Counted from the first letter of the stretch, positions 2,592 to 63,945 are shown. The stretch is 64,000 nt of DNA from an uncultured Actinomycetes bacterium (GCA_963727235.1 CAVSFZ010000012.1:19408-83407); one strand, 5' to 3'. Program-made: numbers and translations. Notes: generated by a model from the letters alone, not told the origin.

Positions 2592-2624
2592 GTGAATAAT
2601 TGGTGCCTGGCACCAATTATTCAC
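2592..2624. repeat. 33-bp perfect palindrome, TT/AA subtype (putative REP-like element / bidirectional terminator)
   Basis: Sequence gtgaataattggtgcc-t-ggcaccaattattcac. The two 16-nt arms are exact reverse complements. It overlaps the upp stop codon (TGA, 2621-2623). Confidence 0.9.
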
Positions 2625-3247
2625 TTGGTGCCGAAGAGGCGGTCGCCGGCATCGCCGAGGCCGGGCAGGATGTAGCCGTTGGAGTTCAGGCCGGAATCCA
2701 CCGCGACCGTGTACACCGTCACGTCGGGATGCGCGGCGGCCACCCGTTCGAGCCCCTCGGGTGCGGCAACAATCGAGAGCAGGCTCATGCGGCGGGCTCC
2801 CTGGCGAGCGCATTCGGTCAGCGCCGCGGCGGCCGACCCGCCGGTGGCGAGCATCGGGTCGAGCATCAGCACGTCGCGTTCCTCCATGTCTCCCGGCAGC
2901 TTGCTGTAGTACTCCACCGGCTGCAGGGTGTGTTCGTCGCGGTAGAGGCCGACGAACCCGACCCGGGCGACCGGGATCAGATCGATCACGGTGTCGAGCA
3001 TGCCCAGCCCCGCCCGCAGCACCGCCACCACCGCCACCTTCTTGCCCGAGATCCGGGCCACCTCCGCCGTGTCCAGCGGCGTCTCCACGGAGGCCGGCTC
3101 CAGCTCGAGGTCACGGGTGGCCTCGTAGGCGAGGAACGCTGACAGCTCGCCCATCAGCTGGCGGAAATCACGAGTGGTGGTGGTGCGATCGCGCAGCAGC
3201 CCGAGCTTGTGCAGGGCAAGCGGGTGATCGACGACGACGAGCGGCAC
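2621..3247 (-). CDS. upp: uracil phosphoribosyltransferase
   Basis: 208 aa with a full-length Upp-like sequence (VLRAGLGMLD, MLDPMLATGGSA, YILPGLGDAGDRLFGTK). Confidence 0.95.
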   Translation of the reverse strand: MPLVVVDHPLALHKLGLLRDRTTTTRDFRQLMGELSAFLAYEATRDLELEPASVETPLDTAEVARISGKKVAVVAVLRAGLGMLDTVIDLIPVARVGFVGLYRDEHTLQPVEYYSKLPGDMEERDVLMLDPMLATGGSAAAALTECARQGARRMSLLSIVAAPEGLERVAAAHPDVTVYTVAVDSGLNSNGYILPGLGDAGDRLFGTK

Positions 3248-4537
3248 TCAGAGCTCGGGATAGCCGTGCATGAACGCCGGGTAGAGCGGACGCGCGGCCA
3301 AGAGCTCGAGCGTGCGCTCCCGCAGACGGTTGAGGTCGGCCGCCTGGTCGAGCGTCTCCAAGATGATCGCGCCCACCTCGCGCATGTCCTCCTCGGTCAA
3401 CCCCCGCATCGTTACCGCAGGGGTGCCGATGCGCACACCCGAGGCAATCGTGGGCGGGCGCTCGTCGTAGGGCACCGTGTTTCGGTTGACGGTGATGGCC
3501 ACCTGGTCGAGCCGCTCCTCGGCGTCCTTGCCCGACCACTCGGTGTTGCGCAGGTCGAGCTGCAGCAGATGCACATCGGTGCCTCCGGTGAGCAGCTCCA
3601 AGCCGCCGTCCATAAGCGTCTCTGCCAGCGTCTTGGCGTTGGCCACGATCTGCTGCTGGTAGGCCTTGAACGCGTCCGAAGCCGCCAGCTTGAAGCACAC
3701 CGCCTTGGCCGCCACCACGTGGCACAACGGCCCGCCCTGAAGACCAGGGAACACGGCCTTGTCGACCGCGGCGGCATGCTCGGCGGTGCTCAGGATCACG
3801 CCGGAACGGGGCCCGGCCAGCGTCTTGTGGGTGGTGGACGTGACCACGTCGGCATGCTCCACCGGGTTGGGGTGAAGCCCGGCTGCAACCAGCCCCGCGA
3901 AGTGCGCCATATCCACCATCAGGAGCGCCCCCACCTCGTCGGCGATCTCACGGAACACGGCCGCATCGATCACCCGCGGGTACGCCGATGCACCGGCCAC
4001 GATCAGCTTTGGCCGGTACTCCTTGGCCAGCCGCCGCACCTCGTCGAAGTCGATCCGCGAATCCTCCCGGCGCACGCCGTAGGCATGCACGTCGTACAGG
4101 CGCCCGGAGAAGTTGACCTTGAGGCCGTGGGTGAGATGGCCGCCGTGATCGAGCCGTAGCCCCAGAATCGGGTCGCCGGGCTTGATCAACGCGAAGTACG
4201 CGGCCTGGTTGGCCGGGCCGCCGGCGTGCGGCTGGACGTTCGCGTGCTCGGCGCCGAACAGCGCCTTGGCCCGATCGATCGCCAGCTGCTCGACCTCGTC
4301 GATCCACTCGCAGCCGCCGTAGTAGCGCTTGCCGGGGTAGCCCTCGGCGTACTTGTTGGTCAGCACCGACCCGACCGCCTCCAGCACCGCCGGCCAGGTG
4401 AAGTTCTCGGACGCGATCAACTCGAGCTGGGTTCGCTGGCGCCCCAACTCCTTGTCGATCAGCGCCGCAACGGCGGGATCCGTCTCTGCCAGGCCGGCGA
4501 CCTGGAACGACGTCAGCATCTGTTCTGTGGTGGCCAT
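3248..4537 (-). CDS. glyA: serine hydroxymethyltransferase
   Basis: 429 aa with [28 protein letters not shown] and [14 protein letters not shown] (PLP-Lys region). Confidence 0.95.
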
Positions 4538-4570
4538 GCCTGCCTCCTGAATCGCGAACGTCGACCGACT

Positions 4571-5158
4571 CTAACGCACCGCAGCCAGCACGGCCTCAAC
4601 CCCCGGACCGTCTCGCAGCACCACCGGTTGATCGCCGGTGACGTCGATCACCGCGGAGGGCGCGCCCGGCAGCGGGCCGCCGTCGATGGCGATCGCGGCC
4701 GCCTCCAGCAGCTCCGCCGGGATCTGGTCGAACGCCGCCGGCGCCGGCTGACCGCGCAAGTTCGCACTGGTGGCCACAAGCCCCCCGACAGCGTCGGCCA
4801 GCGCGGCCACCTCCGCCGGCAGCTGCGGTACCCGCACGCCGATGCGGGTGGGGTCGTCGCCGCACACATGGGCAAACCGCCGTCCCGGATTGGAAATCAC
4901 CAGCGTGATCGGCCCGGGCAGCACGCTCGACAGCAGGCCGATGCGGCCGCTGGCCTCCGGCACGGCATCGGCGACGAGCGCGCCGACCGATCCCAGCATG
5001 ATCGCCGTCGGCTGGGTTGCGGGCCGTTGCTTGAGCGCGTACAGCCGCTCCACCGCGGCCGGCACGGCGGCGGCGCAGGCGATCCCGTAGACCGTGTCGG
5101 TGGGCAGGATCGCAAGCTCGCCCGCAAGCAGCAACGCGACCTGCTCGGCGCGGCTCAC
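4571..5158 (-). CDS. tsaC: L-threonylcarbamoyladenylate synthase (TsaC/YwlC type)
   Basis: C-terminal 195 aa of ORF 4571..5503 (LPTDTVYGIACAA..., TSANLRGQPAP). I chose the GTG start at 5158 because it makes a GTGA overlap with the prmC stop. The upstream part of the ORF is Arg/Gly-rich and lies inside prmC. Confidence 0.8.
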   Translation of the reverse strand: MSRAEQVALLLAGELAILPTDTVYGIACAAAVPAAVERLYALKQRPATQPTAIMLGSVGALVADAVPEASGRIGLLSSVLPGPITLVISNPGRRFAHVCGDDPTRIGVRVPQLPAEVAALADAVGGLVATSANLRGQPAPAAFDQIPAELLEAAAIAIDGGPLPGAPSAVIDVTGDQPVVLRDGPGVEAVLAAVR

Positions 5159-5994
5159 GGACGCCGCCCCGTGATGAATCGCTCGATCCCGGCAAAATCG
5201 TCGCGCACCCCGATGTCGGTGTAGGCCTCCGCGGCCAACGCGCCGGCCACGGCACCGGCCTGGCCCGCGCCACACTCCAGCGCGAGCAGCCCGGCGGGGG
5301 TGAGCGCAGGCGGCGCCAACCGTACCAGCGCCAGCAGCAGCTGCAATCCGCCCGGCCCGGGGGTGGTGGCGACGCGCGGCTCCCACAGCCGCACCTCCGG
5401 CTCGAGCGTGTCCAGCTCGGCAGCGGGGATGTAGGGGGGGTTGGACACGATCAGATCGAACTGCCGCCCCCCCACCGCATCCAGCAGGTCTGACTCGAGC
5501 CACTCGACCTCCAAACCAAGATCGGCGCCGTTGGCCCGCGCCAGGTCGAGTGCGCCCGGCGAGATGTCAGTCGCCGTCACCCGCGCCGCCGGCAGCTCCT
5601 GCGCTATTGCCAGCGCAATCGCACCCGACCCGGTGCCCACATCCAGTACCGCCGGCGCCGGCACCGTCATCAAGAATTCCAGGCAGACATCCACCAGCTC
5701 CTCGGTCTCCGGCCGGGGGATCAGCACTCGCCGGTCGACCGCCAGGTCGAGACCGCGGAAGCCCCATCGGCCAAGGATGTAGGCGACCGGCTCGCGCCGG
5801 CTGCGGCGCTCCACCAGCGACCCGATCGACCCCAACTCGGAGGCGGTCAGCACCCGGGCGTGCTGCGAATACACCTCGCTGCGGGAGAGGGAGAGGGCGT
5901 GCCCGGCAAGCAGCTCGGCGTCCAGCCGAGGGCTGGGGCTGTGGTCGGAGAGCGCGCCGGTGGAGCTGACGATGACCTCGCCGAGGCTGGTCAT
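5155..5994 (-). CDS. prmC: peptide chain release factor N5-glutamine methyltransferase
   Basis: 279 aa with the SAM motif VLDVGTGSGAIA and the catalytic NPPY (VSNPPYIP). It overlaps the prfA stop. Confidence 0.9.
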   Translation of the reverse strand: MTSLGEVIVSSTGALSDHSPSPRLDAELLAGHALSLSRSEVYSQHARVLTASELGSIGSLVERRSRREPVAYILGRWGFRGLDLAVDRRVLIPRPETEELVDVCLEFLMTVPAPAVLDVGTGSGAIALAIAQELPAARVTATDISPGALDLARANGADLGLEVEWLESDLLDAVGGRQFDLIVSNPPYIPAAELDTLEPEVRLWEPRVATTPGPGGLQLLLALVRLAPPALTPAGLLALECGAGQAGAVAGALAAEAYTDIGVRDDFAGIERFITGRRP

Positions 5995-63786: not shown

Positions 63787-63813
63787 CTGGACACCTCAGG
63801 TTATGCACCGCAG

Positions 63814-63846
63814 GTGAATAACCAGTGCCTGGCAGTTTTTATGCAC
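63814..63846. repeat. degenerate 33-bp copy of the palindrome
   Basis: Sequence gtgaataaccagtgcc-t-ggcagtttttatgcac. It keeps the arm ends and the CCTGG centre, but the arms no longer pair fully. Confidence 0.7.
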
Positions 63847-63851
63847 CGCAG

Positions 63852-63874
63852 GTGAATAAAAAGTTGCCTGGCAC
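63852..63874. repeat. truncated copy (left arm plus centre only)
   Basis: Sequence gtgaataaaaagttgcc-t-ggcac. The right arm is replaced by unrelated sequence. Confidence 0.6.
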
Positions 63875-63914
63875 TCTCACGCCCAGGCACGACAAACAGC
63901 CTGATGGGTAGCGG

Positions 63915-63945
63915 GTGAATAACGGTGCCTGGCACCGTTATTCAT
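63915..63945. repeat. 31-bp palindrome, C/G subtype (last base C->T)
   Basis: Sequence gtgaataacggtgcc-t-ggcaccgttattcat. Confidence 0.9.

Follow-up and report, generated by a model that had tools for sequence, protein, structure and literature searches.

Uncultured actinobacteria of the Gaiellales type carry a dispersed family of short palindromes. Its copies appear and disappear, give way to other subtypes, multiply side by side and decay, nearly always at the 3′ ends of genes and chiefly between convergent genes. We regard the family as rather likely to be a lineage-specific set of REP-type palindromes that are short, dispersed and non-autonomous, with the mycobacterial TRIT motif as its nearest published analogue. 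The family has not been named previously; its kind, REP-like and TRIT-like, is already known. The sample comprises a 64,000-nucleotide stretch of genomic DNA, referred to as the window, together with 83 related 8-kb loci, and the hosts are uncultured soil actinobacteria. There are nine intact copies in the 64 kb of the window and 115 full copies in the window and loci together.

The unit consists of (G)GTGAATAA, a spacer of 1–2 nucleotides, GGTGCC-W-GGCACC, the mirrored spacer and TTATTCAC(C). The resulting palindrome is 31–33 bp long and is predicted to fold, as single-stranded DNA or RNA, into a 15–16 bp hairpin with a 3-nucleotide loop (folding z-scores of −4.8 to −6.6). The symmetry runs to the ends of the element, with a conserved outer GTG/CAC, and the flank profile contains no conservation beyond position −2 on either side. 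Six spacer subtypes occur: C, AA, TT, AT, CC and AC. The first-pass annotation had proposed that spacer changes on one arm are compensated on the other and that the central base is always A or T, and both proposals hold in the larger sample. The same spacer is present on both arms of 95 of 109 copies. An alignment of 53 distinct copies contains 62 cells changed on both sides, and its covariation score of 0.197, compared with 0.054 after shuffling, was reached by none of 500 shuffles. The central base is A or T in all intact copies found, and mismatches are limited to the two outermost pairs.

The core GGTGCCWGGCACC has nine exact matches in the window, or ten with one mismatch allowed, against an expectation of 0.18, which is an excess of about 50-fold. 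The 33-mer pattern has six matches in the window and none in shuffled sequences. All perfect palindromes in the window with arms of at least 15 nucleotides belong to the family, except for one that is GC-only and intragenic. A scan of a genome collection identified more than 91 matching stretches, nearly all of them from about 12 uncultured genomes of the Gaiellales/Thermoleophilia type, in which subtypes are genome-specific and several dialects occur within one genome. Unrelated soil contigs totaling 896 kb lack the core, and the plasmid, phage and IMG/VR collections contain no member of the family. A family with the same 25-nucleotide inner sequence, AATAATTGGTGCCWGGCACCAATTATT, is also present in a genome of the acidobacterial order Bryobacterales, and near-identical cores are present in Desulfovibrio and Desulfitobacteriaceae genomes; on the improbable reading of the element as a self-spreading cassette (below), it, or the factor that recognizes it, may therefore move between phyla.

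Copies in the window and at stop codons

All eleven copies listed in the first-pass annotation contain the element as described at their coordinates; however, the number of those that are perfect or differ at a single end base is nine, not eight. The six perfect copies begin at 2592, 11688, 11734, 20434, 31231 and 35352. The 33-bp copy at 2592–2624 (TT/AA subtype) lies between a family-4 glycosyltransferase gene (1420–2544, minus strand) and upp (2621–3247, minus strand), the stop codon of which is the TGA of the palindrome arm (2621–2623). The convergent junction of the genes for ETF-QO (plus strand) and ETF-alpha (11761–12717, minus strand) harbors a doublet, with a 33-bp TT/AA copy on the left (11688–11720) and a 31-bp C/G copy on the right (11734–11764), and the arm TGA of the latter is the ETF-alpha stop. 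At another convergent junction, the 33-bp AA/TT copy at 20434–20466 terminates both genes, the plus-strand gene at the arm TAA (20439–20441) and the minus-strand gene at the arm TGA (20463–20465). The 33-bp AA/TT copy at 31231–31263 begins 1 nucleotide past the TGA of a histidine-kinase gene and is located upstream of an acyl-CoA carboxylase beta gene. The C/G copy at 35352–35382, the palindrome of which reaches 33 bp at 35351–35383, provides the arm TAA (35357–35359) that is the stop of a biotin-carboxylase gene, and an HMG-CoA lyase-like gene starts about 15 nucleotides downstream of it.

In the three remaining intact copies, one outermost base differs. The AA/TT copy at 41339–41371 has C as its first base, and its arm TGA (41340–41342) is the stop of a gene for a 177-residue Gaiellales-specific protein, convergent with a threonine dehydratase-like gene. 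It is followed by a remnant missing from the original list, CGTTATTCAC at 41372–41381, which is the right-end 10-mer of a C/G-subtype copy. The TT/AA copy at 63754–63786 has T as its last base, and its arm TAA (63759–63761) terminates a JAB/CysO-hydrolase of 131 residues, whereas the homologues usually have 130. The positions 63801–63874 are occupied by a degenerate tandem with CGCAG joints, composed of a second previously unlisted remnant, TTATGCAC (63801–63808), a degenerate full copy (63814–63846) and a half copy (63852–63874). The C/G copy at 63915–63945 also has T as its last base; comparison with the loci L177–L181 indicates that its right-arm TCA is the stop of the convergent gene that adjoins this cluster and leaves the window, encoding a HEAT-repeat protein. 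Gene calls based on GC3 agree with the context assigned originally, namely three convergent junctions, three co-directional ones and one at the window end, and the last is also convergent, as judged from relatives.

The proposed enrichment at 3′ ends extends to the whole sample. In the window and the 83 loci, copies occupy 46 of 119 convergent junctions (39%), 31 of 436 co-directional junctions (7%) and 3 of 119 divergent junctions (2.5%; chi-square p ~1e-22), and only 3 of 97 placed copies are intragenic. Where convergent genes have no copy between them, the median spacer is about 6 nucleotides, so that these genomes mostly do without hairpin terminators; most of their convergent junctions are too tight to accommodate a terminator of any kind.

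Among 147 gene ends neighboring the copies, 37 terminate at an arm TGA and 22 at an arm TAA (40% together). Measured from the stop, the element begins most often at −4 (37 gene ends) or −8 (22 gene ends). That the arms supply the stops of flanking genes was absent from the first-pass annotation. The base preceding the stop is C at 12 of the 37 arm-TGA stops, compared with 1 of 88 elsewhere (Fisher p 1e-6), so the final sense codon belongs to the gene itself. Each strand of the AT-rich arms offers TGA and TAA in two frames; therefore, a copy landing at or within the last codons closes the reading frame and leaves the protein almost or entirely unaltered. Insertions in a read-through frame amount to three cases at most. 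Small intervening deletions fuse the arm TGA with the gene's own stop, and at the window-end junction a comparison of L179 with the window reveals a 5-nucleotide collapse of the segment separating the arm TCA from the gene TCA.

Turnover and dispersal

Orthologous junctions display empty sites, gains, subtype replacement, flips of the A/T center, clusters and decay. One junction is filled in L080 and empty in L086, with the TGA stop retained. Another is filled in L086 and L014 and empty in L080 and L045, and neither of the convergent stops has moved. The copy at 31231 is present in L175 with its center base flipped, diverged in L176, and absent from L172 and L173; L175 and L176 also carry the copy at 35352, which L172 lacks. 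Five states of the 41339 junction are represented: empty in L173, a C-type copy in L172, two decayed C copies in L176, an AA-type copy without a remnant in L175, and the AA-type copy with a C remnant in the window. The window-end junction contains no copies in the more distant L177 and L178, one C/G copy in the close relatives L179–L181, and four to five in the window. The net inserts in filled relative to empty sites are 24, 28, 33 and 35 bp, without duplication. Insertion polymorphism at orthologous loci, on which the first-pass annotation had staked its mobile-element reading beforehand, is thus seen as empty, gained, replaced and decaying sites.

Part of the earlier proposal of REP/MITE-type dispersal is borne out by the lineage-wide multicopy distribution, the genome-specific subtypes and this polymorphism. 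By contrast, a MITE in the strict sense is ruled out, within a limited sample of each genome, by two absences: neither the flank profile nor the comparisons of filled and empty sites contain a target-site duplication, and no parent insertion sequence, nor any pair of arms split by a gene-sized gap, was found in the 0.78 Mb of loci. All 15 solo arms in the 0.78 Mb are decayed full copies. The family resembles MITEs such as the Correia elements of Neisseria and the RPE of Rickettsia in being short, non-autonomous, palindromic, dispersed, gene-end altering and polymorphic for presence; however, it lacks an internal region between inverted ends, and its 31–33 bp are far below the typical MITE length.

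The family also resembles the REP/BIME and REPIN elements of E. coli and Pseudomonas. Both are extragenic palindromes of 20–40 bp, present in hundreds of copies that are concentrated at 3′ ends and in convergent junctions, and both form doublets and clusters, have subfamilies in each genome and evolve in the manner of populations. REPs stabilize upstream mRNA and attenuate transcription. Unlike the family, REPs are imperfect palindromes with a conserved, asymmetric 5′ tetranucleotide of the GTAG type, and the overlap with stop codons is a feature of the family and not a hallmark of REPs. REP systems include a RAYT gene, which is usually flanked by REPs, whereas none was found here in a weak test covering a few percent of the genome. 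A tblastn search of the 0.78 Mb of loci, a few percent of any genome, with two Y1 queries returned nothing with E <0.9, and the Pfam assignments for six 20-kb syntenic loci (about 100 kb, likewise a few percent of any genome) include no transposase. New copies would be made in trans by a hairpin-recognizing enzyme of the HUH/RAYT kind encoded elsewhere in the genome. Such an enzyme would account for the joint changes in both arms of each subtype and for the tendency of new copies to insert within or next to earlier ones. The sample includes 12 doublets with copies 43–56 nucleotides apart, mostly a TT-type with a C-type copy. Their linkers are conserved in length and only weakly in sequence, the palindromes are conserved, and as single-stranded DNA the doublets fold into two separate hairpins.

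Copies have decayed in the more distant relatives L173 and L176, and orthologous copies diverge about as quickly as the surrounding DNA, which argues against strong selection on each single copy. The family may instead be purely selfish, with no role in the host, although we consider this doubtful. The bias towards gene ends would then result from selection purging other insertions in a genome that is about 90% coding, with the arm stops rendering insertions near gene ends harmless. The fast turnover and decay of single copies, the genome-specific subtypes suggestive of copying bursts, the clusters and the copies nested in or beside older ones all agree with this. So do the near-absence of spacer at copy-free convergent junctions, where terminators are evidently dispensable, and the scarcity of read-through-frame insertions, as a selection filter predicts. 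However, a hairpin that serves copying only needs no AT-rich arms beside its GC clamp in DNA of 69% GC, and the palindromes of doublets are conserved while their linkers drift. Copies at orthologous sites are also intact between genomes that are 78–82% identical, although replacement by new copies could have the same effect. Less probable still is a minimal self-spreading cassette of stop codon and terminator, which would integrate at or fuse with gene stops, especially convergent TGA...TCA pairs, by a mechanism requiring no more than the hairpin of the element and identity over a few bases.

Predicted role of the hairpin

As REP-type elements with a host function, the palindromes are predicted from their sequence and placement to serve probably as a two-way transcription stop or an RNA-end hairpin. 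A GC clamp of 5–7 bp, the core hairpin of which has −5.6 to −8 kcal/mol, is flanked by AAUAA/UUAUU. On both strands, because the element is symmetric, the clamp leads into UUAUU in copies of the C, TT, AT and CC types and into UUUUAUU in those of the AA type. This anatomy is consistent with a bidirectional intrinsic terminator or a 3′-end hairpin. In RNA from either strand, the clamp and UUAUU would act as a bidirectional intrinsic terminator, probably a partial one, and/or the 3′-end hairpin would shield the upstream message. Bidirectional intrinsic terminators likewise have a GC stem preceded by an A-tract and followed by a T-tract, so that both strands specify a stem and U-tract, and are located between convergent genes. 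By contrast, ordinary ones evolved individually and lack a shared 31-bp identity, and the family, a predicted terminator only, differs from them in its interrupted U-tract (UUAUU), its short GC stem (5–7 bp with a 3-nucleotide loop) and a helix that extends to the conserved GUG/CAC. A generic terminator scanner did not call the copies, the U-tract of which is interrupted, and this DNA shows no enrichment of generic terminator-like sites. In about 10 of 35 co-directional copies, about a third, the next start codon is less than 40 nucleotides away, so these copies probably lie within operons, and strong termination would do harm there. The tight spacing of copy-free convergent genes likewise weighs against the terminator reading. 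Furthermore, the outer GTG/CAC would fall past a 3′ end formed in the U-tract; therefore, termination alone is an insufficient explanation.

The perfect symmetry including the outer GTG/CAC, unneeded by an RNA terminator, is what a dyad DNA site of a dimeric protein would exhibit. The protein could be nucleoid-associated or of the gyrase type, as at REP/BIME in E. coli, or it could be an Lsr2-type AT-binding protein, and would organize the chromosome or relieve supercoiling between convergent genes, where positive supercoils accumulate. The sense-strand mismatches have no G·U bias (4 versus 6), and the central base is not oriented relative to gene direction (22 A versus 13 T), as expected of such a site. 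However, six spacer subtypes of 1 or 2 nucleotides per arm shift the half-site spacing and contacts, which a stem tolerates better than a protein, and the insertion polymorphism and clusters are left unexplained, which makes this reading improbable. Pairs of DNA-uptake signals, kept by biased uptake and recombination like the inverted repeats of DUS in Neisseria or USS in Pasteurellaceae, which also act as terminators, would account for lineage-wide conservation with dialects and for inverted pairs downstream of genes, but are very improbable, since the copies arrive as whole 24–35 bp insertions and not by point-mutation drift, intragenic single half-sites were never found (the solo arms are decayed full copies, and intragenic placement is confined to the 3 of 97 copies), several dialects coexist per genome, and we know of no case of competence in this lineage.

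For REP-type palindromes with a role at RNA ends, the closest precedent is TRIT, the Tuberculosis Rho-independent terminator motif (Gardner et al. 2011, PMC3152330). That report describes 147 palindromic bidirectional copies around −8 from the stop codon and a restriction to Mycobacterium (PMC3152330). Both families are sequence-conserved palindromic hairpins with more than 100 copies in actinobacterial genomes poor in canonical terminators. Both are bidirectional and tied to gene ends at narrow positions overlapping the coding end (about −8 for TRIT; peaks at −4 and −8 here), and both make up most of the strong hairpins at gene termini. The hosts differ, Mycobacterium in one case and genomes of the Gaiellales/Thermoleophilia type in the other, and the likeness lies in these described features. 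Perfect palindromy, AT-rich arms, discrete mirrored subtypes, and gain, loss and replacement are features of the present family that, to our knowledge, are not reported for TRIT. In M. tuberculosis, Term-seq matched predicted terminators, including TRIT, to 2–4% of mapped 3′ ends, and this small overlap makes the terminator role of TRIT doubtful and weighs against such a role for the present family. TRIT is not among the Rfam entries, and the first-pass annotation had missed it as an analogue.

Gaiellales and their relatives rank among the most abundant uncultured soil actinobacteria. A single motif that marks about 40% of the convergent junctions in the sampled loci provides an annotation landmark for 3′ ends and stop codons, and a concrete sequence for trial as a terminator part in high-GC hosts. 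The family is a second, independent case, besides TRIT, of a sequence-conserved palindrome fused with stop codons, and its sites, well resolved as empty, filled, replaced or decayed, offer good material for studying how short palindromes copy without a visible transposase.

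Palindromes of the window and their mirrored subtypes

The window contains all eleven copies of the palindrome family claimed in the first-pass annotation, each of which was verified by reading its coordinates. Six copies are perfect palindromes (starting at 2592, 11688, 11734, 20434, 31231, and 35352), and three have a mismatch of a single outermost base (41339, 63754, and 63915). The earlier statement gave eight copies as perfect or off by one end base; the number is nine. The two other copies are a degenerate one (63814–63846) and a half copy (63852–63874), and two remnants had not been listed, CGTTATTCAC at 41372–41381 and TTATGCAC at 63801–63808. 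The core GGTGCCWGGCACC occurs nine times exactly and ten times at one mismatch, where shuffled sequences are expected to give 0.18, and the 33-mer pattern has six matches in the window and none in shuffles. The window has a GC content of 63–72%. Its perfect palindromes whose arms reach 15 nt or more all belong to the family, except for one that is GC-only and intragenic. A GC-only perfect palindrome of 22 bp, TCGAGCCGGCCGGCCGGCTCGA, is positioned within a coding region at 18168–18189 and has no relation to the family. Each copy of the family can form, on either strand, a hairpin with a 15–16 bp stem and a 3-nt loop, with folding z-scores of −4.8 to −6.6.

The subtypes are named after the spacer that separates AATAA from the core: C, AA, TT, AT, CC, or AC. 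In 95 of 109 copies the opposite arm carries the mirrored spacer, while independent arms would agree in about one-third. When 53 distinct copies are aligned, 93% of the cells pair and 62 cells are changed on both sides, although these cells are not independent events, because the subtypes are lineages, and the invariance of the core is in part an artefact of how the copies were found. The covariation score of 0.197 compares with 0.054 for shuffled alignments and was matched by none of 500 shuffles; when the alignment is slid as a control, pairing falls to 33–49%. The mirrored arm changes noted from the window are therefore borne out. Mismatches in the arms cluster in the outermost two pairs. 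The subtypes are genome-specific: one genome carries AT and C, another almost only C, and the group of the window C, AA, and TT, with CC found in more distant Gaiellales and Thermoleophilia genomes. Strand-specific selection on RNA is rejected, since G·U pairs are not in excess over A·C pairs on the sense strand (4 versus 6) and the centre base is not oriented relative to the genes (22 A versus 13 T).

Gene 3′ ends and stop codons in the palindrome arms

The family consists of lineage-wide perfect palindromes under hairpin or dyad constraint, which are limited to the 3′ ends of genes and fused to stop codons. Genes were called by codon-position GC, and 92% of the window is coding on these calls. 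All seven window loci adjoin a gene 3′ end, as the first-pass annotation had noted: three are convergent junctions, three co-directional, and one is the cluster at the window end, which, judged from relatives, is also convergent (JAB and HEAT-repeat genes). The genes beside the window copies are ordinary housekeeping genes. In the window together with 83 high-GC loci, a copy is present at 46 of 119 convergent, 31 of 436 co-directional, and 3 of 119 divergent junctions (p ~1e-22, chi-square).

The arms furnish the stop codons of flanking genes, a point absent from the first-pass annotation. The arm GTGAATAA provides TGA and TAA in two frames and on both strands. Among 147 gene ends adjoining a copy, the stop is the arm TGA in 37 and the arm TAA in 22, and at most three genes read through. 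The window genes that stop in an arm end at 2621, 11761, 20441, 20463, 35359, 41342, and 63761. The base preceding the arm TGA is C in 12 of the 37 cases in which the TGA serves as the stop, as opposed to 1 of 88 unused arms (Fisher p 1e-6), which indicates that the last sense codon is the gene's own and is not supplied by the G of the element. Where convergent junctions lack a copy, the median spacer is about 6 nt, with frequent overlaps; therefore, an insertion at such a junction must touch a stop codon. Overlaps of 4 nt or abutments are very common for convergent and adjacent genes of this lineage (window 36215–36231, 43122–43125, and 45870–45873); at L173:10531–10534, in a relative of the window, the shared CTAG forms TAG on both strands.

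Turnover at orthologous junctions

Comparison of orthologous sites shows that copies are gained, lost, replaced, and decaying, so that the family is in active turnover. Locus L080 is filled (GCC-TGA-ATAAAT...ATTTATTCA-CCCTG) where L086 is empty (GCC-TGA-CCCTG), a difference of 28 bases with the stop retained. Conversely, L086 and L014 are filled (GGG-TGA-ATAATT...AATTAT-TCA-GACG) where L080 and L045 are empty (GGT-TGA-G-CTA-GACG), and neither of the convergent stops has moved. A series is seen at the 41339 junction of the window, which was set against four syntenic relatives of 79–93% nucleotide identity. The junction is empty in L173, where the two genes share CTAG; it holds one C-type copy in L172, two decayed C-type copies in L176, one AA-type copy in L175, and an AA-type copy with a C-type remnant in the window. 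The flanking 177-residue protein has the same length in all these states. At the window-end junction, L177 and L178 have no copy and L179–L181 (98% protein identity) have one of C type, while the window has a 190-bp cluster made up of a TT copy, two degenerate copies, and a C copy. The TTATTCACCTCAAGCTTG of L179 corresponds to TTATTCATGCTTG in the window, a collapse of 5 nt from the TCA of the arm to the gene's own TCA; a stop inside an arm can thus arise through a small deletion after insertion. Orthologous copies can also differ in subtype (L027 versus L090, L018 versus L033) or have another centre base (L014 versus L086, window versus L175), and copies decay in more distant relatives (L173). 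Twelve doublets, mostly of a TT-type and a C-type copy, are spaced 43–56 nt apart, with a linker that is conserved in length and weakly in sequence.

Gene content differs among close relatives exactly at palindrome-bearing junctions. L172 lacks an HMG-CoA lyase-like gene (window 35345–36219 versus L172:5386–5405), and L173 lacks a carboxyltransferase gene (window 31203–32872) and an EamA gene, the latter with a decayed CC-type copy in its place (L173:15004–15036). The L175 orthologue of the 35352 copy (L175:4541–4573, GGTGAACAGCGGTGCCGGGCACCGTTATTCAGC) shows four differences, one of them a G where the W centre is otherwise invariant. The L175 assembly contains many frameshifted genes and resembles long-read data. 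CCWGG is a classic site of cytosine methylation, which causes base-calling errors in nanopore reads, and the G may be a hint of methylation in the loop.

The first-pass annotation had proposed a REP/MITE-type dispersing element and named insertion polymorphism as its mark; such polymorphism is seen in the empty, filled, replaced, and decayed orthologous sites, and the interpretation as a dispersing repeat is supported. The label of a dispersed repeat holds; that of a MITE in the strict sense does not, since neither a target-site duplication nor a parent element was found. Flanks are not conserved beyond position −2. In 0.78 Mb of loci, no parent insertion sequence with the arms as terminal repeats was found, as solo arms there are decayed copies. 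A tblastn search of the same loci with Y1/RAYT queries gave no match, and the annotation of the syntenic loci includes no transposase; this is a weak test that covers a few percent of each genome. A rule that copies insert directly 3′ of a TGA target, as for IS200/IS605, is not supported, because the 41339 junction is filled where the ancestral stop is TAG.

Distribution, known systems, and possible role

The pattern AATAA-N1-2-GGTGCCWGGCACC-N1-2-TTATT was scanned over one genome per species. Among the matches listed are more than 91 stretches, nearly all from about 12 uncultured 'Actinomycetes' genomes from Danish soils and from Gaiellales and Thermoleophilia MAGs. Homologues of a lineage-specific window protein are named only as Gaiellales. 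The core is absent from 80 control loci (896 kb) in which other soil bacteria have a homologue of a window gene; those from a metagenome scan with the acyl-CoA carboxylase protein are relatives from other lineages only, with at most 72% identity, and have no copies. Plasmid and phage BLAST searches and a pattern scan of IMG/VR gave no family match, and an exact-sequence look-up of the JAB protein returned no record. The first-pass annotation recognised no named repeat family. Rfam gave nothing for the window at gathering thresholds and only sub-threshold miRNA-type hairpins at permissive E-values, and full-text searches for GTGAATAA as a palindrome, the 13-mer core, and Gaiellales repeats found no description of the motif. 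No tRNA genes were found. The CC-subtype palindrome of more distant Gaiellales-type genomes is located inside non-coding tandem units of 160–230 bp (L072:200–830, L003:4390–4970, L071:4900–5190) with a second conserved, GGGGACACC...GGTGTCCCC-like hairpin. The units, which have no Rfam match, may represent either a larger repeat or arrayed small RNA genes that each terminate with the palindrome.

Similar palindromes occur in other phyla. The Bryobacterales genome MAG-241 (GC ~0.61) carries five copies of AAAAATAATTGGTGCCWGGCACCAATTATTTTT (L031:3472–3745, L049:5556, L087:6963, L089:7926), which is identical to the TT subtype of the window across the inner 25 nt and has A5/T5 outer arms instead. 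By eye, the stop of the upstream gene is the arm TAA in several cases, and the L031 copy lies within a 195-bp tandem duplication. Shared descent, horizontal spread, or convergence may account for these copies. The core GGTGCCWGGCACC with AATAA/TTATT and other outer arms (CTTAATAAA..., GTTAATAAG...) is present in a Desulfovibrio MAG (L012:808, L060:2159), a Desulfitobacteriaceae MAG (L076:213), and Alkalihalobacterium elongatum (L007:4615). Between the two Desulfovibrio copies there is a mirrored change, T..A versus C..G. These genomes are of low or mid GC content; therefore, the copies are not mis-binned Gaiellales DNA. A minimal stop-codon-seeking cassette common to several phyla is improbable; the idea rests on the 25-nt identity with the Bryobacterales family, which by a rough estimate is hard to call chance.

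Several known elements were rejected. The resemblance of TTATTCAC to the DnaA box TTATNCACA was put down to chance, since A is not the ninth base and CAC is not kept in the variants from other phyla. The sigma-54 −24 element (TGGCAC) and integron attC and dif sites do not fit the context (housekeeping genes, both orientations) or the sequence.

The family resembles REP/BIME elements in distribution, clustering, and subfamily structure; however, it lacks their asymmetric GTAG tag, and the weak search found no RAYT. The closest published analogue, likened by description, is the mycobacterial terminator motif TRIT (Gardner et al. 2011, PMC3152330); the family is treated as the same kind of element and not as a TRIT member. 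TRIT is reported to be restricted to Mycobacterium. According to one review, a subset of mRNAs has well-defined 3′ ends linked to TRIT; however, in Term-seq data the overlap of predicted terminators, including TRIT, with mapped ends is only 2–4%.

A terminator role of the palindromes is plausible from their anatomy. In RNA from either strand, a GC clamp (−5.6 to −8 kcal/mol) would have AAUAA before it and UUAUU or UUUUAUU after it, as in a bidirectional intrinsic terminator, and a 3′ end would be protected by the full 15-bp helix (−20 to −24 kcal/mol). Generic terminator-like sites are not otherwise enriched in this DNA. However, in about one-third of the co-directional copies the next start codon is under 40 nt away, most convergent junctions are too tight for a terminator, the conserved outer GTG/CAC is beyond the expected 3′ end, and individual copies are not strongly conserved. 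These points count against a strong or essential terminator, and because of them the possibility that the family is purely selfish keeps substantial weight. A protein site at the DNA level is possible; however, it fits poorly with the changes in spacer length. By analogy with the action of RAYTs on REPs, new copies of the dispersing repeat would be made in trans by a hairpin-recognising enzyme, which would explain the mirrored subtypes, the genome-specific bursts, and the landing of copies in or beside older ones. The family, not previously named, is one of REP/TRIT-like palindromes in an uncultured lineage, and its most interesting features are the fusion to stop codons and the well-resolved turnover series.
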